From: Escherichia coli O157 typing phage 14
Sequence record: KP869112
Length of the DNA: 64,000 nucleotides
Strand: one strand, 5' to 3'
A program made the translations under genes and the position numbers. This document shows, one piece after another, positions 22,982 through 61,375 of the stretch (position 1 is its first letter; the number at the start of each line of letters is the position of its first letter). The notes under the pieces are model-generated. The model made no database searches, was not told the DNA's origin, and saw nothing but the letters and a program-made list of their open reading frames with translations.

Positions 22982-23401
22982 TTATAATGATTCGTATATT
23001 TCAAAAATCCGATTTGCCAGGTCGTTACGGTACCGGAATTTTTCTTCACGTTTGATCATTAGATCTTTGAAGCCGTATTCTTTAAGCACTTCATTAACTT
23101 TATAGCGGCATACCCTCATATTGTCTTGCGCGTCACCGATAAACTTGTTGCTATGGTGCATGGCTTTAATTTCTTCTTCCAGGACCAGGGCAACTATGCG
23201 GACCGGATCAAGCTGATAGGCGGTAACATCCATGCGGCATTGTAAACGGCTTTTTACGTCTGCCACCGGGTATACTGCAACCTCTTCCCCGTCAACATTG
23301 ACAATAATTAGTTTACCATCGATTTCGAATCCTTTCGCCGCCGGACCGTGACAAAAAGCGTTATCAAAGCTATATGCCGGATTATTAGATTTGATGTTCA
23401 T
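22982..23401 (-). CDS. hypothetical protein
   Basis: RBS AAGAGG before ATG. Confidence 0.5.
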   Translation of the reverse strand: MNIKSNNPAYSFDNAFCHGPAAKGFEIDGKLIIVNVDGEEVAVYPVADVKSRLQCRMDVTAYQLDPVRIVALVLEEEIKAMHHSNKFIGDAQDNMRVCRYKVNEVLKEYGFKDLMIKREEKFRYRNDLANRIFEIYESL

Positions 23402-23548
23402 GGTGTTTTTACCTCTTAGTTAATTTTCTTACAACTTCCCTTCAAAAAAGAATATAGCAAAACTGCCGATCCTTGTCAACCAAGGATAGCATAATTTTTA
23501 TGTGATCAAGGGGCTTTATTGCCCCCTCTGATCGTGCAACTTGTTGTA

Positions 23549-23812
23549 TTATTTGTTGCTCATCCAGTTTTCCCAGGCTGCCTGATAATCTGCCTCACTG
23601 CGGCGGATCTCTTCTTGCTCTTCAAGTCGGATCTCTTCTTCCAGGTACCCCAAGATGTCAGCCTTTTTGGTCTGGCGTAGCATCCAGTCATCTTTTTTGC
23701 GGGTAAAGATCTTATAAGCTTTCTCGCAAACCTCTTTTTTGCTACCTTTTTGGACTTCAAGAATTCTGTAGGCCATGTACTGAACTAATTTAAGCTGATC
23801 CAGACGTTTCAT
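23549..23812 (-). CDS. hypothetical protein
   Basis: RBS AAAGAGGAAA before ATG. Confidence 0.5.
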   Translation of the reverse strand: MKRLDQLKLVQYMAYRILEVQKGSKKEVCEKAYKIFTRKKDDWMLRQTKKADILGYLEEEIRLEEQEEIRRSEADYQAAWENWMSNK

Positions 23813-23889
23813 GATGTTTCCTCTTTATGTGGTTCGTTTTGATTAGTTGATAATACAGCAGTTCGCAGATCAGTCTTTAGCAATTCATG

Positions 23890-24108
23890 CTATTTACTCA
23901 CAAGGGTGTCGAAAACAAATTTTTCTTTATTGTCTAAACTCACGTATCCGATTCGACCACGCAAGCCGCAAGTAGTGCCGTACTCGTAACCATTAAGGCC
24001 TTTAACCTTCCAATCCGTACCCATTAAAACCGCATTATATTCCTGACCAACTACAAAAGCGCCCCCAGTCGATTCAATGCAAACAACTTTAATTTTACGG
24101 GTTGTCAT
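23890..24108 (-). CDS. hypothetical protein
   Basis: RBS AAAGAGAGAAAG before ATG. Confidence 0.5.
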   Translation of the reverse strand: MTTRKIKVVCIESTGGAFVVGQEYNAVLMGTDWKVKGLNGYEYGTTCGLRGRIGYVSLDNKEKFVFDTLVSK

Positions 24109-24168
24109 TTTCTTTCTCTCTTTGTGTGGTTCTGATTAGTGGGCCTTTTGGCCCGTGTCATTATCTTA

Positions 24169-24441
24169 TTACTTGCGGCGGCAGAATTCAAGCGTTTTTA
24201 ATTGATAATCTTCCTCAGCCTGGAGTACGACCGCCTCGATCATTTCGTTGGCATTGTTAAAGCCATAACCTTTAGCGAACTCATCCGCGCCACCTTCGTG
24301 ATCATGTTCTGCGTTCATCGCTTCCACAAAATGGAATTCCAAATTGTTGAGGTAGGGGCTTGATGTTCCGTCCTCTTTTTCGATGAGATCCCAAATAGCA
24401 TTAAAACGTGATTCGACTTCTTGATTAATCCAGCTTGACAT
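24169..24441 (-). CDS. hypothetical acidic protein
   Basis: RBS AGAGAGGAAAAC before ATG. Confidence 0.5.
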   Translation of the reverse strand: MSSWINQEVESRFNAIWDLIEKEDGTSSPYLNNLEFHFVEAMNAEHDHEGGADEFAKGYGFNNANEMIEAVVLQAEEDYQLKTLEFCRRK

Positions 24442-24547
24442 AATGTTTTCCTCTCTTCTGGTTGTTGTGTGGGCACTTTTGCCCCTTCAAGATAAATGTT
24501 ACCCCACCCCCTGGCAGATGTCAACGGTTTTTATAGTTCTTATATGA

Positions 24548-24593
24548 CAGGCACCCCCGGTGATTGTCTCCCCCCGTCGCCAGGTGCCTGCCG
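24548..24593 (-). repeat. copy 1 of conserved GGCAGGCACC...GACGGGGGGAGACAATCACCGGGG element (minus orientation), with flanking 8 bp stem
   Basis: Reverse complement nearly identical to 33654-33690. Confidence 0.6.
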
Positions 24594-24600
24594 TGGAATA

Positions 24601-24629
24601 AGTATAACAAAAAACAGGACCATTGCAAG
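24601..24629 (-). promoter_or_regulatory. candidate sigma70-like promoter (CTTGCA, 17 nt, TATACT) upstream of the conserved element
   Basis: Hexamers on minus strand. Confidence 0.35.
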
Positions 24630-24652
24630 CCCTGTTTTGTAGTTTATAAATA

Positions 24653-24844
24653 TTATATTTTTTCGCCTATGTAGTCCGGTCGGTTTTTCTCTGTCATGCG
24701 CTTTAGCAATTCTTGAATAATCCATATTGCGGTCAATGTCTCATCTTCACGCTTTGAGTCAACATAATCAGGATCGTTTATAACCTTTGTTTGATTATGA
24801 TATCTCAATACCGCCAACACTTTTACAGCTTCATCAGTGGTCAT
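24653..24844 (-). CDS. hypothetical protein
   Basis: ORF-track ORF; weak RBS. Confidence 0.4.
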   Translation of the reverse strand: MTTDEAVKVLAVLRYHNQTKVINDPDYVDSKREDETLTAIWIIQELLKRMTEKNRPDYIGEKI

Positions 24845-24989
24845 TATCGCACCTAAAACAATGAGTTAATATATAACACCAGATCGCTGACCACTAGAAT
24901 AACACTGATCAGCACATACCTAACCATAAGGGGAAAGAGCGCCAATATTGCCACCACAATCCCCAAGGTGATGATTATCTTTTTCATGG

Positions 24990-25274
24990 TTAACGGTTCA
25001 CGTAAGTTTTCCCGTTCACGGTTATGGGCAGATCCTCCAGGTCTGGGTCTTCCTTAAGGTCGCGAGCAAGCTCACCGCACCGGATACCCTCGAATCCGTA
25101 GTACTCTGTTGTACCGTCATTAAAAGTTTTAGCGGCAAGGCATAAGCGATAAGTAACCCCGATTTGATTGACGGCATGGATATCCGTTAGATCAACCTCT
25201 TTTGCCAGCTCTTTAGCCATTACAGGCGCATTAAGTCCAACAACCAGGGCAACCACTGCGATCATCTTTTTCAT
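24990..25274 (-). CDS. secreted/periplasmic small protein (signal peptide)
   Basis: N-terminus MKKMIAVVALVVGLNAPVMA looks like a cleavable signal peptide; RBS AAAGAGGA. Confidence 0.5.
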   Translation of the reverse strand: MKKMIAVVALVVGLNAPVMAKELAKEVDLTDIHAVNQIGVTYRLCLAAKTFNDGTTEYYGFEGIRCGELARDLKEDPDLEDLPITVNGKTYVNR

Positions 25275-25365
25275 TGTGTCTATCCTCTTTCTGCTACGTT
25301 TAAGGCGGCGGTAACCGCCTGTTTATGCTTTGTTGGTTAATTTTCAGGTATCTGTATAAATTAAA

Positions 25366-25581
25366 CTATGCTGTACGCTCAACTATAACAACGGTTTGGG
25401 GGATCTCACCTTCCACCACTAGTAAGGCCTTTTTCTGCGTGATGGATATCTTTACCCGTTGCAGCGTGGCGGTGAAGTCTTTCATTTCGTCACGTGGTGT
25501 TTTAGTGCAATGCCAGATCTCAGGCTTACCTATTTGCAAGCCGCGTAAAAATTCTGTTTTACCTGTCTTATTCGTGATCAT
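25366..25581 (-). CDS. hypothetical protein
   Basis: ATG with AAGGTGA RBS; ORF-track start 25590 is an extension. Confidence 0.45.
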   Translation of the reverse strand: MITNKTGKTEFLRGLQIGKPEIWHCTKTPRDEMKDFTATLQRVKISITQKKALLVVEGEIPQTVVIVERTA

Positions 25582-25591
25582 TTTATTCACC

Positions 25592-25696
25592 TTAACCGAT
25601 ACCGTGGGAAGATAGGATCATGTTAGCCATAGTTGCAACCACTCCAACCGATAATGCCAGGCCAACTACTACAACCGTGAAAATTTTCTCTAACAT
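25592..25696 (-). CDS. small hydrophobic peptide (34 aa)
   Basis: RBS GAGGG before ATG; single TM helix; below ORF-track cutoff. Confidence 0.35.
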   Translation of the reverse strand: MLEKIFTVVVVGLALSVGVVATMANMILSSHGIG

Positions 25697-25748
25697 GATT
25701 CTACCCTCATTAATGGGCGTTGCCTTATTGCCCCGCCCTACGAAATAC

Positions 25749-25776
25749 ATTCTACCCGATTTGTAATTGTTGTCAA
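25749..25776 (-). promoter_or_regulatory. candidate sigma70-like promoter (TTGACA, 16 nt, TAGAAT) on minus strand
   Basis: Hexamers on minus strand upstream of the 25696 peptide gene. Confidence 0.4.
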
Positions 25777-25782
25777 ACTATT

Positions 25783-25962
25783 TTAACGATAATCATCATA
25801 TGCTTTATTTACCTGGCGAATATAACATTCAAAAGCCAGATCAATAGATTTATATTCACGAATATACTCACCATAGGAAACCACATACATTTCTATAGCT
25901 TCCTCATATGCGAGGAGAATAGAATCTAAGCCTACGATCTCAGTCTTTGCAATAATAGCCAT
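25783..25962 (-). CDS. hypothetical protein (59 aa)
   Basis: RBS AAAGAGGATAAA before ATG; below ORF-track cutoff. Confidence 0.4.
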   Translation of the reverse strand: MAIIAKTEIVGLDSILLAYEEAIEMYVVSYGEYIREYKSIDLAFECYIRQVNKAYDDYR

Positions 25963-26038
25963 GATTTTTATCCTCTTTGTGGTTGGTGGGGCTTGTTGCC
26001 CCCCTTTGATTTATATATTACAGTCTTATATGGTCATG

Positions 26039-26272
26039 TCAACTATTTTCAAAAAATTTTTCTGCTGTGATATTTTTCCCGGTCGGATTCGCTACTTTCA
26101 AAATTTTATCATGTACTGGACGCCCAAAAGAATAAGATCCGTATACAGTAAACCAATAATCGCCGTCAGGCTGTACTATTACCGCCGCATATGGTACGCC
26201 TTTTTCGTTTTTGCTGACAAAATAGATCACATTGCCATTAATAGCCTCAGCGCGTTTAATTTGTTCCATCAT
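26039..26272 (-). CDS. hypothetical protein
   Basis: RBS AAAGAGAGG; preceded by GGGGCC-hairpin. Confidence 0.5.
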   Translation of the reverse strand: MMEQIKRAEAINGNVIYFVSKNEKGVPYAAVIVQPDGDYWFTVYGSYSFGRPVHDKILKVANPTGKNITAEKFFENS

Positions 26273-26326
26273 GATGATTTACCTCTCTTTATTTTCATAA
26301 TTGGGGCCTTTTCGGCCCCGCCAGGT

Positions 26327-26611
26327 TTATTTATTGATAGCGTGCAGCGGGAAAGGTACGCCAGGTTGATAGATAACTTTTACAACCTCATCAGGGCAAA
26401 AGAAATTGCAGAATTCCCCCTGATAAGCCTCATCCTCTTTCAATTCTTCATCAACATACTCAAAAAAGTAGTCAACACTTGGATAATCTTGCCCTGGGTT
26501 ATAGTCAACCATTGTCAGGACCAGTTCAAGATCGTTGCGTAGGATATGCATACCCGCTTTTAAGTATTTTGCTTCCATTTCTACTACATCGCCAGCGGTA
26601 ACAATAGCCAT
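26327..26611 (-). CDS. hypothetical acidic protein
   Basis: RBS AGGAG before ATG. Confidence 0.5.
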   Translation of the reverse strand: MAIVTAGDVVEMEAKYLKAGMHILRNDLELVLTMVDYNPGQDYPSVDYFFEYVDEELKEDEAYQGEFCNFFCPDEVVKVIYQPGVPFPLHAINK

Positions 26612-26813
26612 GGTTTTAACTCCTATCTATCCGGTTAATGATTGGGGGGCCTCCCCCCTGACACGTCCTATTATCCATATTGTAGGGCTTGATGCAAGTA
26701 CTTCTTTAAAAAATTTTTAAGCGCCTTGGGGCCGCTGTAACGCTAAAATAATAAAGGCCATGCAACCGCATAGCCTTTATGTGATTATATCACTGCAGGA
26801 CCTGCTAGAGGCC

Positions 26814-27164
26814 TTATTTTGCATTCTTGCCTGTATTGCCGCCACGGTACCAGCGTTTGCGGTGAAAATGGTAATAATCACCCTCGGCATTAAACATCAG
26901 ATGATTTTCAATAACCAGCTTACGAAGGTGGGCCGGATCTTGTTCCATTCTTGCCAGATTCCGGCGGCTGTTACGTAAGCGTATAAATTCCATATTCAGG
27001 CCGTTGATTGCAGCATGGATGTCAAAGTAACCACCTTTGAGACGTTCACGCATGGCGTTAAGCTCAACACAATATACAGATTTCTCACAAATCAAGGTAT
27101 TAGCTAGGGCGCGGACCTGGGCAAGGGGGTTAAGCTCATTAAGGTAATATAGTTTGACTTTCAT
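26814..27164 (-). CDS. hypothetical protein
   Basis: ORF-track ORF. Confidence 0.45.
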   Translation of the reverse strand: MKVKLYYLNELNPLAQVRALANTLICEKSVYCVELNAMRERLKGGYFDIHAAINGLNMEFIRLRNSRRNLARMEQDPAHLRKLVIENHLMFNAEGDYYHFHRKRWYRGGNTGKNAK

Positions 27165-27181
27165 AAAATCGCCTGCTGAAA

Positions 27182-27490
27182 TTAGTTTGAGAAAACATCG
27201 TTCACAATAGCGATCACAATGCCGCCCACCTTGTCACGGTCAACAATGCACAAATCACCATGGATCATGCGGTAGTCTGGATGATCTTTCACAGAATAGT
27301 CAATAAGTGTTTTCTTGTCGTCCAGCTTCGTAACTTCCATTCTCATAACGATATGAGAATCATCAAAGGCATTATTCCGAAAAGTCATAGCCTGACCGCC
27401 AGGGCACCCGGTGATCTCCACTTCCACACCATCTACGATCTGACCATCAAAGAAATAAAGATTATTAGCCTGGATAAACATGTCTATCAC
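27182..27490 (-). CDS. hypothetical protein
   Basis: RBS AAGGAGTGA before ATG. Confidence 0.5.
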   Translation of the reverse strand: MIDMFIQANNLYFFDGQIVDGVEVEITGCPGGQAMTFRNNAFDDSHIVMRMEVTKLDDKKTLIDYSVKDHPDYRMIHGDLCIVDRDKVGGIVIAIVNDVFSN

Positions 27491-27527
27491 TCCTTGTTAA
27501 CTGCGTGGTATTTTAACAGGGTTTAAA

Positions 27528-27572
27528 TTTACTTTATTGATGGCCCTGGAGTCAAGGCCATCTAAAAATAAA
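27528..27572. repeat. 45 bp conserved intergenic repeat, copy 1 (TTTACTTTATTGATGGCCCTGGAGTCAAGGCCATCTAAAAATAAA)
   Basis: Near-identical to copies at 31399 and 32019; 7 bp hairpin GATGGCC/GGCCATC; lies immediately 3' of the stop codon of a minus-strand gene. Confidence 0.65.
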
Positions 27573-27574
27573 TT

Positions 27575-27775
27575 TTACAGGCCTACAATCTCTTTGATTC
27601 GTTTAACCGCTGCCTCAGCGCCTTGGGGGTAAAAATTATGGTAACCAATCACGCGAGTGATACTAATCGCCGTTTGATGATCTTCATAGTCGCCCTTGAA
27701 GATTTCTTGACCGTCAATCAGCACGGCAATTTTTTCTTCTTTTTTGAAGTTAATAACGCGGATATTGTTGCTCAT
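27575..27775 (-). CDS. hypothetical protein
   Basis: RBS GAAAGGAGAAAC. Confidence 0.5.
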   Translation of the reverse strand: MSNNIRVINFKKEEKIAVLIDGQEIFKGDYEDHQTAISITRVIGYHNFYPQGAEAAVKRIKEIVGL

Positions 27776-27914
27776 TTTGTTTCTCCTTTCTGGTTTTTGT
27801 GTTGGTGGGGATGTTTCCCCGTTGATTGTTATTATCCATATTGCGGACCAGATTGCAACACCCTGGAAGAAAAATTTTTTGAAAAAGTTAAGCCCCCCAT
27901 GATCGGGGGCGTTA

Positions 27915-28034
27915 TCAGTTACTTATAGCAATAAAGTACATTCCTACCCCTAACAATATTTCAAGGGCGATGATCTCAAGCCATACCATAACCTGGCGCA
28001 CCTTATCGGTGCGGGGCTTATCCTTGGTTGTCAT
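27915..28034 (-). CDS. small membrane peptide (39 aa, MTT start)
   Basis: RBS GGAGGAAAGGGGGAG before ATG; hydrophobic C-terminal half. Confidence 0.4.
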   Translation of the reverse strand: MTTKDKPRTDKVRQVMVWLEIIALEILLGVGMYFIAISN

Positions 28035-28276
28035 CGTCTCCCCCTTTCCTCCTGGTAGTAGTGACGTAGTTTACAATGGCCCCCAGGAGTACCATCACCA
28101 CGCACATCATAAGAAAAATTATCTCTGTCGTTGTTCGATCCATTGTTATAAAATTCCTCAAGATCAGGCCTGAAAATAAAGCGTTCGTTATTGAATCCAT
28201 CACGCCAGGCGGCTGGCTTCAAATCTTCATTAAAGGGATTAATTAACGTGGTATTATTTAAACGGCTGGCCCACAT
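28031..28276 (-). CDS. hypothetical protein
   Basis: RBS GAGAGGAATAG before ATG; overlaps alternative ORF 28018-28203 in another frame, so call is uncertain. Confidence 0.35.
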   Translation of the reverse strand: MWASRLNNTTLINPFNEDLKPAAWRDGFNNERFIFRPDLEEFYNNGSNNDRDNFSYDVRGDGTPGGHCKLRHYYQEERGRR

Positions 28277-28625
28277 ATTTTCTATTCCTCTCAAATAGGC
28301 GATCCGCCTCAGTTAAACATATCTCATGGGCTTGATCTCTGGTTTTAGCCTCATCAAAAACTTGTTGTGCCAGGCTGCAGCGCAAGGAGACCGGAAGATC
28401 ACTATAATAGGCGTTAACAAAAGTTTGGGCGTCATACAGGTCGGAAAATACTTTACCCTTCTTATTATTATCCTTGTCAACAATTGCAAGGATAACTAGT
28501 ACAATGGTTGCAACCACCCCCAAGAAAATAGATATAATAAACCATAAAAAGGCGGATCTACCCATCTTGCCAGCTATCCAGGCGTTGAACAAGGCAACTA
28601 CTACAGCCAAAATAATAAATTCCAT
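28254..28625 (-). CDS. membrane protein
   Basis: ATG with AAAGAGG RBS at internal Met; two TM helices; ORF-track start 28763 is an extension. Confidence 0.5.
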   Translation of the reverse strand: MEFIILAVVVALFNAWIAGKMGRSAFLWFIISIFLGVVATIVLVILAIVDKDNNKKGKVFSDLYDAQTFVNAYYSDLPVSLRCSLAQQVFDEAKTRDQAHEICLTEADRLFERNRKYVGQPFK

Positions 28626-28692
28626 TCTATGTACCTCTTTTGCAGTTCTGTTTAACAATAAGGCGGCAAATATGCCGCCGCCTGTTACCTGA

Positions 28693-29073
28693 TTAAAAAC
28701 TATCGCCGTAAATCTTCCCGCTTTCTGCCCACACCACCACGCGGGGCATACTATCCCACACATCTTGTTTTAGATTGAGCGCGTGCAATTCTTCGATGGT
28801 GCCCATACCGGGCACGGGCTGATTGTATACTGCAAAACGACCACCCGCATAATCATAGGCTAGAATTAAATCACACTGGATCATCTTTTTGATCATGGCA
28901 TTAAGCATGGCGTTAGCCGCATACTGATCACGTTTTAAAGGCAACTCTTTGATTAGTTTGCGATAGTTTTCGATATGGTCGCACACTGTTTCACGCGGAA
29001 GATCTTTCATATCCTCGCGAAAGGTAACCAGGTTAAACATAACGGTGTAAATAGCTTTGGTAGTGTTTTTCAT
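28693..29073 (-). CDS. hypothetical protein
   Basis: RBS AAAGAGGAAAAC. Confidence 0.5.
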   Translation of the reverse strand: MKNTTKAIYTVMFNLVTFREDMKDLPRETVCDHIENYRKLIKELPLKRDQYAANAMLNAMIKKMIQCDLILAYDYAGGRFAVYNQPVPGMGTIEELHALNLKQDVWDSMPRVVVWAESGKIYGDSF

Positions 29074-29162
29074 GATGTTTTCCTCTTTGTTTTGTGTGGG
29101 GGCAAACGTCTTGCCCCTTGAGTTTTAATATAGCAGGTTTTTAGGTTATTGCAACACTTTAT

Positions 29163-29786
29163 TTATGAAAAAGTCATCTCGCCATATTCATCCACATCAA
29201 ACCGCCAATCATTGGCCTCGATAAGGCCGATCAGGTTTTCGGTGGTGAATTGTTCAAGATAGGCTTGCTCCAGGTCTACGTAAACCTTGCGGGATAACTC
29301 CCGTACCGTCTCGGTGATCAGCTCTTCCAGCTCTTCAACTTTATCCTCTTGCTTGGTGGTCAGGTCTAGCCAATTGGTATCGATGCACCCGCCTATTGTG
29401 TTTTCGTGATGATAATGGCTAAACGGGATACGTTCAACGCTGGCTGACAGTTCGCCATCATGCATTGTGCCGAACAAGTGTCTAATTAAGCGGAATTTTG
29501 TAAGCGCTTTAACCTTACGCAAGAATTTTTCTAAGTTTACATTTTCAGCGCTAATTGATGCGCCGTCGCCTTGACACCAAAAGCCGGACCAATGTATTTC
29601 GGTATCTTCAAGGCCATACTCTGGAAAAACATATTCTTTATAGTACTCAATTACACTTTCTGCAAAAAAGTTATCCCCGCTGTGTTCTTCTCTTTCGCGG
29701 ACCATTTCAACAGCTTTTTCTTTTTGTTCGTCGGTCAGCACGTCGAAAGATAAATTGTAACCTGTAGTAATGTTAACGGTGGTCAT
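29163..29786 (-). CDS. hypothetical acidic protein
   Basis: RBS AATAGGAGAAAAT; no confident motif. Confidence 0.5.
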   Translation of the reverse strand: MTTVNITTGYNLSFDVLTDEQKEKAVEMVREREEHSGDNFFAESVIEYYKEYVFPEYGLEDTEIHWSGFWCQGDGASISAENVNLEKFLRKVKALTKFRLIRHLFGTMHDGELSASVERIPFSHYHHENTIGGCIDTNWLDLTTKQEDKVEELEELITETVRELSRKVYVDLEQAYLEQFTTENLIGLIEANDWRFDVDEYGEMTFS

Positions 29787-29820
29787 GATATTTTCTCCTA
29801 TTTTCTTTGTTAGTGGCGGG

Positions 29821-30094
29821 NNNNNNNNNNNNNNNNNNNNNNNNNNNNNNNNNNNNNNNNNNNNNNNNNNNNNNNNNNNNNNNNNNNNNNNNNNNNNNNN
29901 NNNNNNNNNNNNNNNNNNNNNNNNNNNNNNNNNNNNNNNNNNNNNNNNNNNNNNNNNNNNNNNNNNNNNNNNNNNNNNNNNNNNNNNNNNNNNNNNNNNN
30001 NNNNNNNNNNNNNNNNNNNNNNNNNNNNNNNNNNNNNNNNNNNNNNNNNNNNNNNNNNNNNNNNNNNNNNNNNNNNNNNNNNNNNNNNNNNNNN
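29821..30094. other. assembly gap (run of N)
   Basis: 274 consecutive n characters. Confidence 1.
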
Positions 30095-30247
30095 TTTAAT
30101 CACTGGACGGCCTTGCCAGTGCCCTTGGAGAAAGCGCGCTTTAACTTTATCGGTGGAACTATCACGCCACCAAACGGCTTTATTATTGCAGTAGTAAAAA
30201 TTATTCAGGACAACATCGACTTTATCAAAATTTTTTAATTTACGCAT
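30095..30247 (-). CDS. hypothetical protein, 3' end lost in assembly gap
   Basis: RBS GGAAGGAG before ATG at 30247; ORF runs into N gap. Confidence 0.4.
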
Positions 30248-30282
30248 GGCGTTTACTCCTTCCTTCTTGCTTTGATGTGGTT

Positions 30283-30311
30283 AGTATATCCGGACTATCC
30301 CAAGGTGTCAA
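30283..30311 (-). promoter_or_regulatory. sigma70-like promoter on minus strand (TTGACA, 17 nt, TATACT)
   Basis: Hexamers on minus strand ~35 nt upstream of the 30247 start. Confidence 0.5.
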
Positions 30312-30492
30312 GCTTTAAATAGAATCACTGTCAATAATATTTTTAACGCCATAAAACGGCCCTAGACGCTGTTTTCAGGTTAAGAAAGGGGATTGCATAG
30401 GTAGGGGCCTTTATGGCGCTTGTAGGGCCAACCAGGGGCGCTATCGGCGGGATAGAAATAAAAAGCCCCGCACAATGGCGGGGCGTTGGTTG

Positions 30493-30690
30493 CTATTTGT
30501 CTTTGTGGCGGTATCGTTCCGCCTGTCGTTCACGTTCCAAAAGCAGGCCCGGTAATTTGCGATCATAGTGATTTCTCCAGATCTTCCCGAACCTTTTCGG
30601 TTTATTCGGTTTATTGTTACGCTGGCGGCGTTCCGGCAGCTCTTCGGAATCGTGGGGGCGCTTTACAATTTTTTCGAAATTAATTTTCAT
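30493..30690 (-). CDS. small basic protein
   Basis: ATG with AAGGGGG RBS; arginine/lysine-rich. Confidence 0.4.
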   Translation of the reverse strand: MKINFEKIVKRPHDSEELPERRQRNNKPNKPKRFGKIWRNHYDRKLPGLLLERERQAERYRHKDK

Positions 30691-31033
30691 AAACGCCCCC
30701 TTTACTGATCTCAATATTTGCCTGAATCGCCCGGATACGACGTTTTATAGTCTCCTGATCCTTGCAATCATATCCCCAAAAGTCTACGATTTTTGCGCCG
30801 CCAGCCTTTAAGCGGTATAATGTTTCTTGCATCTTGTAAGCTGGGATCGGTCTCGGTGTTACCTGGTCCCCTTTCTCATCCTTGTACTTGATAATGTAGT
30901 CTTCATTGTCGTTGAATACCCAAAATGGGTATTCTGTAAGCGCGTTGCTCTCTTTTTCGTTTTTGGATTGGATCTTGTTTACAATTAAAGCCGTAGCAAT
31001 AGCGCCAATAATAAAACTTGCCCCGCTGATCAT
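30680..31033 (-). CDS. membrane-anchored protein
   Basis: ATG with AAAGGAGAAAG RBS; N-terminal TM helix. Confidence 0.45.
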   Translation of the reverse strand: MISGASFIIGAIATALIVNKIQSKNEKESNALTEYPFWVFNDNEDYIIKYKDEKGDQVTPRPIPAYKMQETLYRLKAGGAKIVDFWGYDCKDQETIKRRIRAIQANIEISKGGVYEN

Positions 31034-31109
31034 GTTACTTTCTCCTTTCATTGTGCTGATAAACTATCTTTATAGATGGCCCTGCTACCAGGACCACCGA
31101 AAAAACAGT

Positions 31110-31355
31110 TTATTTGACGATACCGACAAAACAGATCCCGCCTTCCCCTATATAGGCAACATCGGTAATTTTATAATTTGTCAAGATCCGCGTGTTCAGA
31201 TCATTAATAAAATCGGTCATCGCGTTGGTGTAGTTGTCTTCCGTGTCTAAGGCATAATCCCAGGTGTAAACCTTTTTACGTCCGAAGCCTTTTACCATGA
31301 TACGGGCGCTTTTGGTGTTGGTAGGGGCATAATATTTGGTGATTAGTGCTGCCAT
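31110..31355 (-). CDS. hypothetical protein
   Basis: RBS AGAGGAG. Confidence 0.5.
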   Translation of the reverse strand: MAALITKYYAPTNTKSARIMVKGFGRKKVYTWDYALDTEDNYTNAMTDFINDLNTRILTNYKITDVAYIGEGGICFVGIVK

Positions 31356-31398
31356 GGTTTTAACTCCTCTGAATTAGTTCAGTGTTAACAGTATAAAG

Positions 31399-31442
31399 TT
31401 TACTTTATTGATGGCCCTGAAGTCAAGGCCATCTAAAAATAA
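31399..31442. repeat. 45 bp conserved intergenic repeat, copy 2
   Basis: Near-identical to 27528 and 32019 copies; directly abuts stop of 31445 gene. Confidence 0.65.
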
Positions 31443-31444
31443 TC

Positions 31445-31786
31445 TTACTCGTTTTCTTCCAGCTCTGCAAGCTCTTCTTTTGCTTCTTCTAACTCTGTCT
31501 GTAGTTCCTGGTATTCTTCATCGTCCTCAATATCCAGGCTGTCGATGTAGTCGCTAAATCCGCAGCGGTAAGCGATAGGATCTAGCTCCTCGAGGATACG
31601 CGACGGAAGAAAAGAAATGTTTCCGATCATAATTTCGCCGTAGATCTCGTCTAACCATTCATCATAGTTTTCGTCGTACTTGTCCTCGTCGATTTCAAAG
31701 TTATCGATCTTATTCTCAAGGTCTGCGATCTGTTTTTTCAGCGCGGCGATCTGCATGGCTTTTTCTGCGGCGGTCATAGTAGTCAT
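31445..31786 (-). CDS. hypothetical acidic coiled-coil protein
   Basis: RBS AAAAGGAGAAAAAC. Confidence 0.5.
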   Translation of the reverse strand: MTTMTAAEKAMQIAALKKQIADLENKIDNFEIDEDKYDENYDEWLDEIYGEIMIGNISFLPSRILEELDPIAYRCGFSDYIDSLDIEDDEEYQELQTELEEAKEELAELEENE

Positions 31787-31865
31787 GGTGTTTTTCTCCT
31801 TTTGTGTGTTCTGGGAAGTTTTCCCGTCTATGTGTTTAGTATACTGATCTAAGTTAGCTTGTCAA

Positions 31866-31985
31866 TTAAAAGTTTAAGAAAAATTTTGCGATACCGTTGG
31901 CGCTACCCATCAACATTTGCGCCAGGATGTAACCAATGATGCAAACGATAATAGTTACCTTTGTGTGCTGGCGTGTAGTACTCAT
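31866..31985 (-). CDS. small hydrophobic peptide (39 aa)
   Basis: RBS AAGGGGG before ATG; TM helix. Confidence 0.4.
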   Translation of the reverse strand: MSTTRQHTKVTIIVCIIGYILAQMLMGSANGIAKFFLNF

Positions 31986-32018
31986 CTTTAAGCCCCCTTT
32001 CCGCTCAACTGTGGTTAG

Positions 32019-32063
32019 TTTACTTTATTGATGGCCCTGAAGTCAAGGCCATCTAAAAATAAA
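32019..32063. repeat. 45 bp conserved intergenic repeat, copy 3
   Basis: Near-identical to copies 1 and 2; directly abuts stop of 32065 gene. Confidence 0.65.
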
Positions 32064-32064
32064 C

Positions 32065-32469
32065 TCAGTAAGTTTTCAGTACTTTACCGTCCAACCTGTC
32101 AAGCTGGATCTCGATAGCTGCAGAAAACCTATTGTAAACCACATCGCCCATAGAATCCAACCAGTCTATGACATTATACACTTGCTCTTTGTTCTTGCAG
32201 GTCCGGATCCGTTTCATGATGTAAGCCGGATCAATATTGGTACTCTCGTTGGTGTTCCCCTGTACCTGGTTTGCCGTATTAGTTACATCTTTAATGGCCT
32301 TTACCACCACCTGGAATGGCTTTAAGGTGCCTTTTGCGTTCATCTCACGCGCTTTTGCGGCGCGGTTGTTATATGTTACACAACGGCGGCAAATGTTGAC
32401 CAAATGCATATCAATAATTTTTTCATCGTTTGCCAGTTCGTTCATGATGCGGCGTACGTTCTTATTCAT
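32065..32469 (-). CDS. hypothetical protein
   Basis: RBS AAAGGAAAAAG. Confidence 0.5.
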   Translation of the reverse strand: MNKNVRRIMNELANDEKIIDMHLVNICRRCVTYNNRAAKAREMNAKGTLKPFQVVVKAIKDVTNTANQVQGNTNESTNIDPAYIMKRIRTCKNKEQVYNVIDWLDSMGDVVYNRFSAAIEIQLDRLDGKVLKTY

Positions 32470-32552
32470 GATCTTTTTCCTTTGTGTTGGCGGGAAACAT
32501 TCCCGCCTTTTGTGCCTAGTTTACTTTAATTTTGCAGCGTGTCAATAATTTT

Positions 32553-33830: not shown

Positions 33831-33959
33831 GTTATTCTGCAAACGAGAATGATTATCATTCAAAATTCTAAATGAGAACTCCTCACATTTAATAAATTTA
33901 ATTAGCATGCTAATTACCCTCCGTAACAATTTCCTATAAAACAGTATCCCATAAAATAT

Positions 33960-34440
33960 TCCCATATAGAAATTTTAAAAATCCATTTCTGAAAACGAAA
34001 AATCGATTTCGTCCCCAAAAATTTCAGGTCGAGATCCGGAACGATTTCCAGAAAATCCGATTCAGAAAACGAAAAACAGATCGAGTACTGAGAAATTTAT
34101 CGAGAAAAATTTTCAGAAAATCCAAGCCCTGAAATGAAAAGTAGATCGAGTACCTGGAAAGCTGCACCGCAACTTCAAGATAGTGGTTAGATTGTTACCA
34201 TAGAAGGTCAAGGGTAAGTGGAGGAAGTTCTGGTAGAGGGAGGTTAGCATGTGTGGGAAATCTATAATGGTGGCCTGGAATATGGTGCAAACGATAGGAT
34301 GAGTTATTCAGCTTGTCGCGCCTACTCTGAAAAATCCATTTTAGTTTTCGATCCATTTTCTGATTTTCTAAGAATTTTAAAATATCCAGCCTGGTGAAAT
34401 ATCAAAAGGAGGAAATCCATTTTAGAAATCCCCCTTATAC
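33960..34440. repeat. AT-rich repeat tract: AAATCCATTTT (x4), TTCAGAAAACGAAAAA-like (x2), GATCGAGTAC (x2), CAGAAAATCC (x2)
   Basis: Short direct repeats read in a ~0.5 kb ORF-free stretch. Confidence 0.5.
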
Positions 34441-37531: not shown

Positions 37532-37944
37532 CAGAAAACTTCAACAAATTCTTCCACAGTTTTAATGTCGTGGGAAAAAGGTTTACGGCTATAACGGGCA
37601 ATAGCACTATCAACCACCGCCCGGTACTCTAAATCTTCAGAGTATTTCATGAAGCATTGTAGCGTCTCTGGACAGATAGCTAAATAGCTCCACCACCCCT
37701 CTTCAGATTGGTAGTCGAATCCCATACTCTCCAACCATGAAGCGTACACACCTGCACCCTCTAGCCAGTGGGTATTTTCATCAAGAAATTTATTCACCGA
37801 CATGTGTGCTTCCAGGCACTCGTCAAGCTCTTTTCCGTTAACCAGCCATGCACTGACTGTGGCGCATCCGAGGTCTACAGATTGAGTTGACAGGTTATAT
37901 TGGTCATAGTTCTCAGGTTTAACAATGATATCTTCTAATGTCAT
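37528..37944 (-). CDS. hypothetical protein
   Basis: RBS TAAGGAGA. Confidence 0.5.
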   Translation of the reverse strand: MTLEDIIVKPENYDQYNLSTQSVDLGCATVSAWLVNGKELDECLEAHMSVNKFLDENTHWLEGAGVYASWLESMGFDYQSEEGWWSYLAICPETLQCFMKYSEDLEYRAVVDSAIARYSRKPFSHDIKTVEEFVEVFC

Positions 37945-40886: not shown

Positions 40887-40938
40887 TGCTGTGGTCCCCT
40901 TTCGTTTTGATAGGGCCATTATATTAGGCCCTATCACT

Positions 40939-48125: not shown

Positions 48126-48131
48126 CTAGTG

Positions 48132-48614
48132 TTAAACCCGGATACCTATTGTATACTCGGTGGATACCAATGTCAAATCTAAATTTAAAATTTCTTGCAT
48201 CTCATAGTATGCGTCCAGGGTGAGATACATTTCCCCATCCTTTTCTACATACTTGTCCAAGTGCTTGAGGCATTTCGGATAACTATCGAGTGCAGCTTTC
48301 AGACACTCAAACTCTGTGCTGTTGATGAGTCCTTCCATCTTGGCTACCCGTTCTGGGGTAACGATAGCACTGTAGTGAGATTTAGCTTCCTGAATGCAAT
48401 GGGTCCAAGCATCAACTTTCTCTTCGAAAAGTCCGAAGAATTTCTTTTTGGTGAGCTTCAGATTCTTTAAGTGCTTAAGCACTCGGTTGCCGATCACAGC
48501 CACATCACGAAACTTAAGGATCACTTTGTCGATATCCTCGCGGCCTATTTTCACAAAGCAAGCCTCACACATTTCAGGAGCTGCGTAACCTACTTTCCAC
48601 ATAAAATCTGACAT
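48132..48614 (-). CDS. hypothetical protein
   Basis: RBS TAAGGAGA. Confidence 0.5.
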   Translation of the reverse strand: MSDFMWKVGYAAPEMCEACFVKIGREDIDKVILKFRDVAVIGNRVLKHLKNLKLTKKKFFGLFEEKVDAWTHCIQEAKSHYSAIVTPERVAKMEGLINSTEFECLKAALDSYPKCLKHLDKYVEKDGEMYLTLDAYYEMQEILNLDLTLVSTEYTIGIRV

Positions 48615-49343: not shown

Positions 49344-50668
49344 TTATTGATCAGAATTATCTTTCGTAATTAAGGTCTGGGTAAGTTTGTAATAGCGGAA
49401 GCCACCGCCACCTTGCCAGCTTGCAGACTTAGAAATACCACCTTGATCTTCACCATCAATCACTTTTTGCAAGCGAGGGATAATATGGGTATGACAATGA
49501 TCACCCAGTTCGATCAAGATCCAACGTCTTTTCATCTTGTGGGCTACAGCAGCAGTAGTTCCCGAACCGCCGAATGAATCCAATACCAAATCACCTTCTC
49601 GCGTACACATTTCGAGAATCCGCTTCAAAAGCGCTTCTGGTTTTTTCCATTTTTGAAACTAACGCCGCCTTCATTTGCTATTCCATTCCAACTAATGTCT
49701 GTCCAAACATCAGTTATTAGTTCCGCAGGTCGCATCTCACCGTCAATTTCCAAAAGCCTGTTGGAGTAAAAGACCATTTGCCTACCATTTGCGATATAAA
49801 ATCCTTCAACATCCTCATTCGGATGTACATAAACCTTATCCCTATCTTTCTTTGACTTCTCGATAGTTTCTTTTCTCTTTATTTTAGCGCCACCACCAAT
49901 TGCAACAGATTGAAATACACGTTCTGCATTATCAATTGCGAATTGTGCTAATTCATCATCGAATGTGTCAGGCAGTTTTTTCTTAGCTTCTTTTGCATCT
50001 TTATAGCCATTGGCCTTTGCAAACGCATCGGCAATACCGCACCACGTCCAATTTTTATAATGGTCATCCGGGTTTAATAGGTATTTGTTATATCCTGTAT
50101 CATACCCTTTAGGTATATAGATTTTGTTAAGCGGTTTCTGGGTGCGATCTTTTGCATATACAAGCAAAAAGTTTGCTGTGGAGAAAACTGTGGCTCCTGT
50201 TGCCTTAAATCCCGAAGGGAAATTTGTGGTCATCGATATGGTATTTAACTGATTTGCACGACCAAAAATCTCGTCCATCAAAACTTTTAAATACGCCATT
50301 TCGCAATCATCTAAGTGAACGAATATTACCCCATCATCACTTAGAAGATTACGAATTATTTCTAACCTATCCCTCATTAAGCCCAGCCAAACGGAATGCT
50401 CCAGGCTATCATCGTAGTGCTCAAAAGCCCTCCCGGTATTGAATGGTGGGTCTATGTAAACACACTTCACTTTGCCTGCATACTCTTGCTCTAGCGCCTT
50501 CAATGCTAATAAGTTATCTCCAAAAATCAGTTTATTATCAAAAATATCGTTTTCGGTCACTTTCTGGCTGTGGTAAGACTTGCTAGAATCTTCTAACAAA
50601 ATGTGCTGCTCTAACTTTTTGCGCTCGTTTTTACCTATCCAGGTAAGTTCTAATTTGGTTTTACTCAT
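49344..50668 (-). pseudogene. beta-class DNA N6-adenine/N4-cytosine methyltransferase split by a frameshift
   Basis: Upstream ORF (49625-50668) carries DPPF (VYIDPPFNTG); downstream ORF (49344-49628) carries AdoMet motif FGGSGTT; reading frames overlap across 49628-49658 around a homopolymer (GGAAAAAACC on coding strand). Confidence 0.55.
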
Positions 50669-50726
50669 CGTTTGGTGCTCTCCTTAGTTTTTGTGGGGAG
50701 GAGTGCCTCCCCTTTATACTCACATC

Positions 50727-51071
50727 TTACTGCTCAAGGTCTTCAGAGTCAAGCTCAAAAAGAATCAAACTGTGCATGCCTGCAGAGAGATCAACACACC
50801 CTGCAACAATAAGGGTTTGATAGTAAGGTTCAGCACCCTCAATGTCTTCGTTAAAATCCACAACAAGGTAGTCACCTTTGTTAAAGGTGTATTTGTCCGA
50901 TGTAAACGCAAAACCTGCCCAGTCCCCTACTGCAGGATCTTTATCAGTCACCTTTGTTAGCAGTAGATCTTTTTCACGAGATCTTTTAGTAAAATCGTGA
51001 ATCACAACATCCTTCTCTTCAGGAGTTGGATTGCCGCACACGTAGTTAACGATATTTCTCCACAAACTCAT
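50727..51071 (-). CDS. hypothetical protein
   Basis: RBS AGAGGGGGA; start overlaps helicase stop. Confidence 0.45.
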   Translation of the reverse strand: MSLWRNIVNYVCGNPTPEEKDVVIHDFTKRSREKDLLLTKVTDKDPAVGDWAGFAFTSDKYTFNKGDYLVVDFNEDIEGAEPYYQTLIVAGCVDLSAGMHSLILFELDSEDLEQ

Positions 51072-60319: not shown

Positions 60320-60342
60320 GTCAACACGTTTTTGATGTTGAC
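60320..60342. promoter_or_regulatory. operator-like inverted repeat GTCAACA-N9-TGTTGAC overlapping promoter -35
   Basis: 7 bp perfect arms in divergent intergenic region. Confidence 0.35.
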
Positions 60343-60366
60343 ATCTGTTGAGACAATTGATACGAT
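60338..60366 (+). promoter_or_regulatory. sigma70-like promoter (TTGACA, 17 nt, TACGAT)
   Basis: Hexamers upstream of 60398 gene. Confidence 0.4.
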
Positions 60367-60397
60367 TTCTTCACTTACAGAGCACGAGAGACAACTC

Positions 60398-61375
60398 ATG
60401 AATCTTGAAAAATATTATACACCAGAAGAGTTAGAGCGCTTGCTCAAAAAATATAGACGCAAACAGAATAACGCACGGAAACGAGATATAGAGTTCGACC
60501 TGTCGTGGGAAGAATACCTCCTATTTGGTAAAAAACTTTTAGGGGAGGGGGTATGCGACTACACCCTTATACCTTTCGACATGCACACAGATGAGAACGG
60601 ACTGGGAAATCCTTTCTACCCATCTTTGGAGCGTATAGATGATGAAGGTCCTTACGCAATTGACAATTGTTGTGTGGTAGGGTTGAGGTGCAATGCTCTG
60701 AAAGACTGTCTGGTAGATAAAAAGACTGCAATCCTGATTAAAGACAAAACTGATCGAAAAATTGTCCAGCAGATGATGCTCCACCTGAGCGAAGAGCGTA
60801 TGGAGAAATTGAAAGGTGATTATACTTTTGAAGATTTCATCTTGCAATACGGGACAGAAGAAGATAAACTAGCACTATTTGACGAAGAGGAAGAAGATAT
60901 GTCACCGATGCAGGATTTTAAAAATTTCATGGCTGATCGTGCAGCCAACAAACACATTTCAGACATCGTAAACGAGACTGTGACAGAAGAAATTGAAGAA
61001 CAGACCTCTGAAGAAGAAAAAGAGCCTCAGGAGGTTGAAGAGGAGATTGCAGAAGAGGTTCCTGCACTGCCTGATGATGTTGAGATTGCTAAGGCTTACA
61101 CTTTCTATTGTCAAACGTTCTACGATGCAGGTATGAAAGTTGATCTGTCGTTCAGCCAATTTAAGAGTTCGTATATTCGCAAATGCTGTGCTTTAACTGG
61201 TGAACGTCTCGGAGCTGGACTTAAACCACTGTTGGTGACCGACTGGAATAAAGGTTTCACTAAAGGAAACTTTATGGTAGTATCTCCAATTATGGAGAAA
61301 GCTATGACAGATCTTATGAAGACCACCCGCATGACAATGACCGAGTTGGCAGGTATTTTCAAACACGTTAAATAA
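60398..61375 (+). CDS. hypothetical acidic protein
   Basis: ATG with GAGAGA RBS downstream of promoter; ORF-track start 60332 would lie upstream of the promoter. Confidence 0.5.
   Translation: MNLEKYYTPEELERLLKKYRRKQNNARKRDIEFDLSWEEYLLFGKKLLGEGVCDYTLIPFDMHTDENGLGNPFYPSLERIDDEGPYAIDNCCVVGLRCNALKDCLVDKKTAILIKDKTDRKIVQQMMLHLSEERMEKLKGDYTFEDFILQYGTEEDKLALFDEEEEDMSPMQDFKNFMADRAANKHISDIVNETVTEEIEEQTSEEEKEPQEVEEEIAEEVPALPDDVEIAKAYTFYCQTFYDAGMKVDLSFSQFKSSYIRKCCALTGERLGAGLKPLLVTDWNKGFTKGNFMVVSPIMEKAMTDLMKTTRMTMTELAGIFKHVK

Follow-up and report, generated by a model that had tools for sequence, protein, structure and literature searches.

Promoter-positioned stem-loops and A/C-rich leaders ahead of small early genes in an rV5-like coliphage

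The 64,000-nucleotide (nt) stretch analyzed here (the window) comes from Escherichia coli O157 typing phage 14, sequence record KP869112, and carries a series of short GC-rich hairpins just ahead of small leftward genes between 23 and 33 kb. This 9.1-kb region matched 247 phage records and was 92–97% covered at 93–96% identity by rV5, naswa, HdK5, FFH2, and other Vequintavirus genomes, matches that assign the window to an rV5-like coliphage (Vequintavirus). The leftward (−) block at ~23–60 kb is the counterpart of the transcription unit ‘genes 10-1-238-164’ in rV5 (PMC3606486). Its genes are small and annotated as hypothetical proteins, its base composition is 32% A, 20% C, 23% G, and 25% T, and the genes preceded by the element described below encode hypothetical proteins of 34–207 amino acids (aa) in a variable region. 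A search of the whole window against Rfam, on both strands at the gathering score, returned no matches. For comparison we used annotated GenBank phages and one IMG/VR contig (L004); a search of IMG/VR with the 207-aa protein yielded only two close relatives. RB49 was taken by accession, as it was not among the 40 of 147 records listed for tblastn with the 90-aa protein.

Reading the (−) strand, which is the mRNA sense, together with a hairpin scan revealed a recurrent cassette whose identifying feature is a σ70 promoter at a set distance 5′ of the hairpin. We are highly confident of its anatomy, in which a promoter is followed by a transcribed hairpin and then by a leader; in full, its parts would be an AT-rich tract, a host σ70 promoter, a GC-rich stem-loop, an A/C linker, a Shine-Dalgarno (SD) sequence, and an ATG. 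An earlier note on this sequence had overlooked the promoter and listed eight GC hairpins, all of which are present on this strand (23527–23508, 24154–24141, 24484–24471, 26002–25988, 26319–26303, 27820–27807, 29117–29099, and 32507–32489). Its statement that a start codon follows holds for seven of them, with an ATG within 19–32 nt, and fails for 23527–23508, which lies 106 nt from an ATG. Its list lacked the hairpins at 31825–31813, 26658–26644, 25738–25715, and 50712–50695 and that of gene 29786. The pattern is thus real and non-random, yet it is not present at every gene, and the word ‘systematic’ went too far: a hairpin accompanies approximately 10 of 17 promoters between 23 and 33 kb and only one between 33 and 60 kb.

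In order along the (−) strand, gene 32469–32065 is served by the cassette at 32467..32545 (−), where TTGACA at −35 (32545–32540) and, 16 nt on, TAAACT at −10 (32523–32518) are followed after 10 nt by the hairpin GGCGGGAATGTTTCCCGCC (32507–32489), the leader AACACAAAGGAAAAAGATC, and the ATG at 32469 (−14.6 kcal/mol, z −4.3); the GenBank record of HdK5 labels this hairpin a terminator. Ahead of gene 31786–31445, the cassette at 31784..31865 (−) has TTGACA (31865–31860), TATACT (31843–31838), a 12-nt gap, the hairpin GGGAAAACTTCCC (31825–31813), an A/C-rich leader, and the ATG at 31786 (z −1.7), and its orthologous promoter is annotated P192 in rV5. The cassette of gene 29786–29163, at 29784..29820 (−), is readable only from the 3′ arm, CCCGCC, through the leader ACTAACAAAGAAAATAGGAG to the ATG, as a run of Ns at 29821–30094 hides its promoter and 5′ arm; relatives have a complete hairpin here, in the order TATACT-taaacacaca-GGCGGGAAAACTTCCCGCC. 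This 274-nt N run also masks the end of gene 30247, and since relatives have only ~148 nt between the same flanks, it may hold ~126 extra bases. For gene 29073–28693, the cassette at 29071..29154 (−) joins TTGCAA (29154–29149), a 16-nt spacer, and TATATT (29132–29127) to the hairpin GGGGCAAGACGTTTGCCCC (29117–29099) across 9 nt, with the leader CACACAAAACAAAGAGGAAAACATC and the ATG at 29073 (z −2.7). Gene 27775–27575 follows the cassette at 27773..27858 (−), with TTGCAA (27858–27853), GATAAT (27836–27831), a 10-nt gap, the hairpin GGGGAAACATCCCC (27820–27807), the leader ACCAACACAAAAACCAGAAAGGAG, and the ATG at 27775; a separate T-run terminator lies 5′ of it at 27910–27892 (−).

The remaining cassettes of the region repeat this order. 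At 26609..26697 (−), TTGCAT (26697–26692) and GATAAT (26675–26670) precede the hairpin GGGGGGAGGCCCCCC (26658–26644) by an 11-nt gap and the ATG of gene 26611–26327, with a fold z of only −0.1 and a separate terminator upstream at 26780–26751 (−). Gene 25962–25783 has its cassette at 25960..26042 (−): TTGACA (26042–26037), 16 nt, TAATAT (26020–26015), 12 nt, the hairpin GGGGCAACAAGCCCC (26002–25988), which is also labeled a terminator in the HdK5 record, the leader ACCAACCACAAAGAGGATAAAAATC, and the ATG at 25962 (z −3.3). The hairpin of gene 25696–25592, GGGCGGGGCAATAAGGCAACGCCC (25738–25715), is interrupted; its cassette, 25694..25776 (−), comprises TTGACA (25776–25771), TAGAAT (25754–25749), and a 10-nt gap ahead of the hairpin and the ATG at 25696 (z −3.8). 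The cassette at 24439..24524 (−) leads through TTGACA (24524–24519), TAACAT (24501–24496), 10 nt, the hairpin GGGCAAAAGTGCCC (24484–24471), and the leader ACACAACAACCAGAAGAGAGG to the ATG of gene 24441–24169, and its promoter is annotated P168 in rV5. Gene 24108–23890 is preceded at 24106..24191 (−) by TTGAAT (24191–24186), which overlaps the end of the upstream gene, TAAGAT (24168–24163), a gap of 8 nt, the hairpin GGGCCAAAAGGCCC (24154–24141), and a leader ending in AACCACACAAAGAGAG before the ATG at 24108 (z −4.3). The sole cassette of this type outside 23–33 kb, at 50666..50752 (−), has TTGACT (50752–50747), TAAGAT (50729–50724), an 11-nt gap, the hairpin GGGGAGGCACTCCTCCCC (50712–50695), the leader ACAAAAACTAAGGAG, and the ATG at 50668 (z −2.7). 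A scan of 1–22.9 kb on both strands and of 60.3–64 kb on the (+) strand found no such cassette, only weak AU-containing stems inside genes.

Some hairpins of the block stand apart from this order. The intergenic hairpin GGGGCCGAAAAGGCCCC at 26303..26319 (−) lies 30 nt before the ATG at 26272 and has no recognizable promoter 5′ of it (score 3.1); it is conserved in relatives, and the phi92 homologue has both promoter and hairpin. Similarly, AGGCGGTTACCGCCGCCT at 25303..25320 (−) lies 28 nt before the ATG at 25274 with no promoter at the usual distance, and a further promoterless hairpin is at 28683–28661. The hairpin AGGGGGCAATAAAGCCCCTT at 23508..23527 (−) belongs to another type, since it occupies a terminator-type position between a stop codon and the promoter at 23479–23451, which has no downstream hairpin.

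The promoters of the cassettes scored 7–15 bits with spacers of 16–17 nt, and the first paired base fell 8–12 nt past the −10 hexamer in 10 of 10 readable cassettes. The 20 nt 5′ of the −35 were 78% A+T, compared with 56% (standard deviation 11%) for random 20-mers. Across 10–13 orthologues, 0 of 48 sites in the −35 and 8% of those in the −10 were variable, compared with 27% in the spacer, which argues that the promoters are under selection; the P192 and P168 sequences given in the rV5 GenBank record run directly into the hairpins. We next pooled the sense strands of the window, L004, tuntematon, phAPEC8, and phi92, the last three being phages of a different subfamily, to obtain 178 strong promoter predictions. 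Past the −10 elements, 47 hairpins started at 6–14 nt, with a mode of 10–11 nt, and none at 0–5 or 15–19 nt, while the antisense strands contributed 3 hairpins at promoter spacing. In the window alone, a strict threshold left 6 spaced hairpins against 1.2 expected, and PVP-SE1, of a third genus, contains at least four cassettes of this type among other arrangements. As the distribution of folding energies was bimodal, a test of the mean was replaced by a test of the tail: the start region reached a minimum free energy of −8.8 kcal/mol or lower at 7 of 26 intergenic promoters, compared with 3.7% of random 30-mers (P = 4 × 10−5). The signal therefore comes from a distinct subset of promoters, and early promoters fall into two classes according to whether they carry the hairpin.

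We then considered what is conserved in the hairpins themselves. The stems have 5–8 bp, mostly G-C, with energies of −5.5 to −16.8 kcal/mol and loops of 3–8 nt, and the ten stems in this genome all differ in sequence. Across the same 10–13 orthologues, 20% of stem sites were variable, as against 59% in loops and 38% in linkers. RNAalifold on MAFFT alignments worked for two cassettes, and the regions ahead of genes 29073 and 25274 were misaligned, their hairpins being short and carrying indels, so we folded the variants separately; a hairpin of −5 kcal/mol or better was kept in 82 of 83 distinct orthologous variants. At one pair of the 26658 stem, six variants have G-C, two have G·U, and one has A-U. 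The 27820 stem never varies, although its loop was seen in five forms, and the 25320 stem reads GGCGG/CCGCC in the window but GGGCG/CGCCC in both tuntematon and phAPEC8. In three hairpins the loop is the exact reverse complement of the orthologous loop (TGT/ACA, AAC/GTT, and GACGT/ACGTC), with stems unchanged. These flips, seen at the orthologues of 32507–32489, 29117–29099, and the gene 29786 hairpin (L004, L012, L014), probably arose by inversion in perfect palindromes through template switching. Because stems differ between paralogous cassettes and loops flip, hairpin sequence and loop orientation appear to be immaterial, as has been reported for 5′ stabilizers.

Taking the seventh base past the −10 as the predicted transcription start gives 5′ untranslated regions (5′UTRs) of 42–52 nt, in which the stem begins at about +3 to +7 after 2–6 unpaired nt. 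The hairpin was part of the minimum-energy fold in all ten predicted 5′UTRs, and the SD was unpaired in nine; for gene 26611 the minimum-energy fold partly pairs the SD and the centroid leaves it open. Nine of the ten folded better than dinucleotide shuffles (z −1.7 to −4.3), the exception being 26658, whose G6/C6 composition folds in any order.

The leaders share a composition rather than a motif. The earlier note had placed ACCACA(C)AAAGAGGA between stem and start codon; the strict pattern occurs at 4 sites against 1 expected and is at best a loose consensus, whereas the compositional bias behind it is clear. Between hairpin and SD lie 6–20 nt composed of 58% A, 28% C, 9% T, and 5% G, and the A+C fraction at −32 to −14 was 0.80 for cassette genes, compared with 0.55 for the 51 remaining genes on this strand (P = 5 × 10−6). 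The 263 nt of sequence from hairpin to start codon contain 8% T and a single RNWUU, against 6.3 expected. A/C-rich leaders are known as translation enhancers in E. coli. A Rho-utilization (rut) site was considered and set aside, the linker being only 6–20 nt long.

Given this anatomy, we propose that the cassette is a stabilizer of mRNA, in which a 5′-terminal stem-loop is joined to an unstructured, RNase E-poor, translation-friendly leader within a shuffling package like that of the PeSLs, the promoter/stem-loop cassettes of T4-like phages; we would put the chance that this functional interpretation is correct at about even. The hairpin would form the 5′-terminal structure of an mRNA made from its own promoter and would hinder RppH and the 5′-end sensor of RNase E, like the 5′ stem-loops of ompA and papA. 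Both enzymes require a 5′ end that is single-stranded, and this requirement accounts for the stabilization of mRNAs by 5′ structures (PMC3997798, PMC2948425). In vivo, the sites that RNase E cleaves are characterized by a U located two nt 3′ of the cut (PMC5222698). A linker almost without U would offer few RNase E sites, and its A/C composition would leave it unable to pair with the purine-rich SD. Hairpin and bound ribosome together would then cover nearly all of the short 5′UTR, giving stable, well-translated early messages. Among the roles raised in the earlier note, which had spoken of a processing or stability signal, stability is the one the anatomy fits: the hairpin lies where the transcript is predicted to begin, keeps its structure but not its sequence, and is followed by a U-poor leader.

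Several observations weigh against this proposal. The predicted overhang of 2–6 nt is at or beyond the permitted limit: Emory and colleagues reportedly found in 1992 that stabilization tolerates an unpaired 5′ overhang of no more than 2–4 nt, and RppH needs only 2–3 unpaired nt. Unless transcription starts 8–9 nt past the −10, then, protection may be partial. The promoterless hairpins at 26319 and 25320 indicate that not every hairpin of this kind involves a primary 5′ end. Seven of the 17 promoters between 23 and 33 kb, and nearly all of those between 33 and 60 kb, have no hairpin, so the hairpin is not needed for early expression as such, and the mean folding energy 3′ of all intergenic promoters was no lower than that of controls (P = 0.4). 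Stem mismatches of the G·U and C·A kinds numbered ~3 and 2–3, too few cases to identify the functional strand. Finally, a literature search found no PeSL-like elements, transcript maps, RNA-end data, or half-life data for rV5-like phages.

A broader form of the stabilizer proposal would make the cassettes one half of a two-part takeover of host RNA decay, in which RNase E boosted by an Srd-like protein clears host transcripts and spares the hairpin-tagged phage messages. The 5′ hairpin, U-free leader, and strong SD would then act as a portable ‘RNase E immunity tag’ gained by shuffling. The window contains a 347-aa open reading frame (ORF) at 60332–61375 (+), divergent from the early block, that corresponds to the Srd-like gp11 of the rV5 paper; its PHROG matches are ‘HNH endonuclease’ (3e-111), ‘decoy of host sigma70’ (2e-14), and ‘Srd anti-sigma factor’ (3e-9), and it has no Pfam match. 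T4 Srd is described as stimulating RNase E on host mRNA while phage mRNA is stabilized (PMC4980113, citing Qi et al. 2015; Ueno and Yonesaki 2004). The link between the leaders and the Srd-like protein is speculative, and we regard the takeover as a whole as unlikely.

Terminator function, which had been suggested in bidirectional form, deserves the first hearing among the alternatives. Intrinsic termination in the sense direction was rejected because no U-tract follows the stems and the hairpins follow a promoter, not a stop codon. The first 8 nt past the ten stems contain 0, 0, 0, 0, 0, 3, 0, 3, 0, and 2 T, whereas the T-run terminators of the block (30484, 27910, 26780, 24638, and 22963) have 5–7 T in the same interval. 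Three cassettes carry such a terminator of their own 5′ of the promoter (27910, 26780, and 24638), resulting in the order terminator, promoter, hairpin, leader, gene. On the opposite strand, the T-rich sequence that had been reported is weak, amounting to 2–5 T in 8 nt and reaching 5 T at only 3 of 10 hairpins; we attribute it to the complement of the A-rich first transcribed bases. The block also has no (+) strand genes or strong (+) strand promoters in need of termination. With hairpins lying 3′ of promoters, 7 of 10 lacking any T in the next 8 nt, and an antisense flank only mildly T-rich, bidirectional termination is not supported, and neither is translational coupling, given that these genes have their own promoters and begin 54–211 nt past the preceding stop codon.

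A subtler variant is that the hairpin attenuates or terminates read-through transcription from promoters farther 5′, leaving the expression of each small gene mainly to its own promoter. The authors of the PeSL work proposed such an attenuator/terminator role for their stem-loops, and in RB49/phi1 one PeSL stem-loop placed between promoter and lacZ cut expression approximately as much as a strong terminator (PMC2839356). The density of promoters in the block, the 7 of 10 cassettes without other structure between genes, and the two cassette hairpins called terminators by annotation software in HdK5 are in keeping with this role. However, there is no U-tract (zero T in the 8 nt after 7 of 10 stems), a hairpin 3′ of its own start site would act on its own transcripts too, and three cassettes already have a proper terminator 5′ of the promoter. 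Attenuation also leaves the fixed distance of 8–12 nt from the −10 unexplained, and the RB49 stem-loops mostly lie inside the promoter instead. On balance we consider attenuation unlikely.

Alternatively, in transcripts that are polycistronic or processed, the hairpin could be a barrier to 3′-to-5′ exonucleases that stabilizes the preceding cistron, like intercistronic stem-loops or repetitive extragenic palindromic (REP) sequences, or it could mark a processed 5′ end of the downstream cistron. Hairpins of the same kind without promoters do occur between genes (26319–26303 and 25320–25303), and conservation of structure rather than sequence is in keeping with a barrier. On the other hand, a barrier predicts neither a fixed distance from the −10 nor a link with an A/C-rich leader. 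As the main explanation we find it distinctly unlikely; as an additional role it is compatible with 5′ stabilization and does not exclude it.

Comparison with relatives indicated that the cassettes also mark sites of gene exchange. Gene 24108 is absent from 9 relatives, and the flanks overlap by 17–36 nt inside two repeated A/C-rich leaders; insertions at the 25696 cassette have overlaps of 22–53 nt. Three relatives (L013, L003, L017) have another promoter–hairpin pair in place of the one ahead of gene 25696, and phage PDX (L016) carries a copy of the 29117 hairpin where the 24484 hairpin would be. Judged by these alignments, the cassettes behave like the PeSLs of T4-like phages, with repeats that mark junctions of gene gain, loss, and swap between relatives. 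It is conceivable that the cassette is mainly a DNA-level recombination module, whose palindromes and repeated leaders are kept for shuffling and whose RNA hairpin has no regulatory role. The overlapping homology at indel junctions in repeated leaders and cassettes, the swapping of promoter-plus-hairpin units, the hairpin copied from a paralogue, and the loops flipped in three cassettes, a DNA-level palindrome event, would all be expected of such a module. Yet stems that differ within the genome offer little homology, and the mapped junctions fall in leaders and promoters; moreover, stems are more conserved than loops and linkers and include the GC-GU-AU series, and their strictly kept distance from the promoter suggests that they act in expression. 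We therefore hold a purely recombinational role to be quite improbable.

Least of all do we favor a binding site for a phage protein, either a DNA operator near +12 for a repressor of early transcription or an RNA hairpin for a regulator or nuclease, which we judge highly improbable: inverted repeats just 3′ of the start site are the classic operator position (lac O1) and many stems share GGCGGGAA...TTCCCGCC, but the half-sites vary (GGGGGG, GGGCC, GGGGA, GGCGGGAA), the loops flip orientation, and stems of 5–8 bp around loops of 3–8 nt give variable half-site spacing that ill suits a sequence-specific dimer.

Besides the cassettes, the window contains a minority of promoter/stem-loop elements of the RB49 type (32053, 31433, 27562, 24638, 40936, and 39660). 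A repeated 24-nt hairpin, GATGGCCTTGACTTCAGGGCCATC, occurs at 32053–32030, 31433–31410, and 27562–27539 (−), three near-identical copies where none is expected, with a degenerate copy at 31098–31075. It is preceded by TTTATTTTTA, its loop carries a −35, TTGACT, and a TAAACT or TAAATT −10 follows 18 nt on. By sequence, these repeats are a second, RB49-type promoter/stem-loop class; the Murica GenBank record appears to call the 31433 and 27562 copies terminators, a correspondence by position match only. Stem-loops also lie over the −10 of two strong promoters on the (−) strand, at 40936–40908 (TTGACA-17-TATAAT, score 17.1) and 39660–39630 (TTGTAA-17-TAAAAT), which on sequence grounds are members of the ‘over the −10’ PeSL class of RB49. 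At 24638–24546 (−), AAAACAGGGCTTGCAATGGTCCTGTTTT is followed by TTGTTATACT: the loop of a terminator hairpin is the −35 TTGCAA, and its T-tract is the spacer of a TATACT −10. A 47-nt hairpin at 24592–24546 follows (−24.6 kcal/mol, z −2.3) in a 211-nt non-coding gap and may be a small RNA or structured leader, and relatives have a 354-nt insertion exactly at the 24638–24546 element.

Other non-coding features of the block were recorded in passing. A terminator-like hairpin with a U-tract, GCCCTGCCCGAAAGGGTGGGGC, occurs twice, at 48127–48102 and 37991–37970 (−), each time directly 5′ of an SD; the 37991 stem ends 25 nt before the ATG at 37944, and the 48127 copy lies only 20 nt past TTGACA-17-TACAAT at 48176, a promoter close to the consensus. 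This copy could attenuate transcription near the promoter or give rise to a ~45-nt RNA. A 413-nt non-coding stretch (~33909–34321) contains three degenerate 62-nt direct repeats at 33960–34160, spaced by 65–74 nt and with AAAAATCCATTT-type submotifs; the repeats could serve as an origin, as iterons, or as an array of protein-binding sites. The gap at 30465–30250 (−), within 245 nt of intergenic sequence, opens with the terminator 30484–30465 and continues with C-rich repeats; it contains two TTGACA hexamers 17 nt apart, the downstream of which pairs with a TATACT −10 (promoter at 30311), and L004 has a 536-nt insertion between the two.

The public record labels the cassette hairpins in conflicting ways. 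In HdK5 (L002 1514–1532, 7887–7901) the annotation is ‘putative transcriptional terminator’, and in phAPEC8 (L021 556–575, 937–956, 1787–1806, 3202–3221) it is ‘putative promoter determined with PHIRE’, directly 3′ of σ70 promoters found by MEME. Most other records of rV5-like phages, a group much used in phage therapy and biocontrol, leave the hairpins unannotated. Recognizing the cassette fixes where transcription of about a dozen functionally uncharacterized early genes is likely (predicted) to start. It provides a natural set of minimal 42–52 nt 5′UTRs (hairpin, A/C linker, SD) for studying the rules of 5′-end-dependent decay and for use as expression parts, and, if the cassette is a 5′ stabilizer, it suggests a way, open to testing, for early phage mRNAs to evade the RNase E of the host. 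It also extends the PeSL idea beyond T4-like phages, to a form with the stem-loop in the message. The cassette is a variant of known phage promoter/stem-loop cassettes and calls for no new mechanism.

Four known systems bear comparison with it. Intrinsic terminators are likewise short GC-rich intergenic hairpins, and terminator-finding software detects some of the cassette hairpins, whereas the genuine terminators of the block are elements apart from them. The 5′UTR of ompA is 133 nt long. The ompA and papA leaders (PMC3997798, citing Emory, Bouvet, Bricker, Arnold, Belasco) likewise combine a sequence-independent hairpin at the extreme 5′ end with an efficient ribosome-binding site; they differ in belonging to single chromosomal genes with longer 5′UTRs, whereas here a set of phage early genes has minimal predicted 5′UTRs of 42–52 nt. 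Promoter-coupled terminators (Fletcher et al. 2026 preprint, 10.64898/2026.08.19.745784) also fuse promoter and stem-loop between tandem genes; there, however, the −35 is part of the stem-loop DNA, the spacer contains the T-tract, and transcripts end ~10 bp 5′ of the start site. In the window, only 24638–24611 fits that class, whereas the cassette hairpins lie past the −10, downstream of the start site.

The closest counterparts are the PeSLs of RB49/phi1, PST, and nt-1 (Arbiol et al. 2010, PMC2839356; Comeau et al. 2014, PMC4122927), which share every part of the cassette: an AT-rich tract, a near-consensus σ70 promoter, G(n)-loop-C(n), an A/C-rich leader, an SD, and an ATG. Like the cassettes, they are dense among small genes of unknown function and lie at junctions of gene gain, loss, and replacement. 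Those PeSLs are found in T4-like phages, and the elements described here in Vequintavirinae and Stephanstirmvirinae. In the PeSL papers the stem-loop was interpreted as terminating or attenuating transcription, whereas the hairpins here have no U-tract. The dominant arrangement differs as well: in RB49 the stem-loop mostly sits between the −35 and −10 or over the −10 (bins −25 to −15), outside its own transcript, while in the main class here it begins 8–12 nt past the −10 and is predicted to be transcribed. With the stem starting at or past the expected start site, the cassettes of this phage come nearest to the rarest PeSL subclass.

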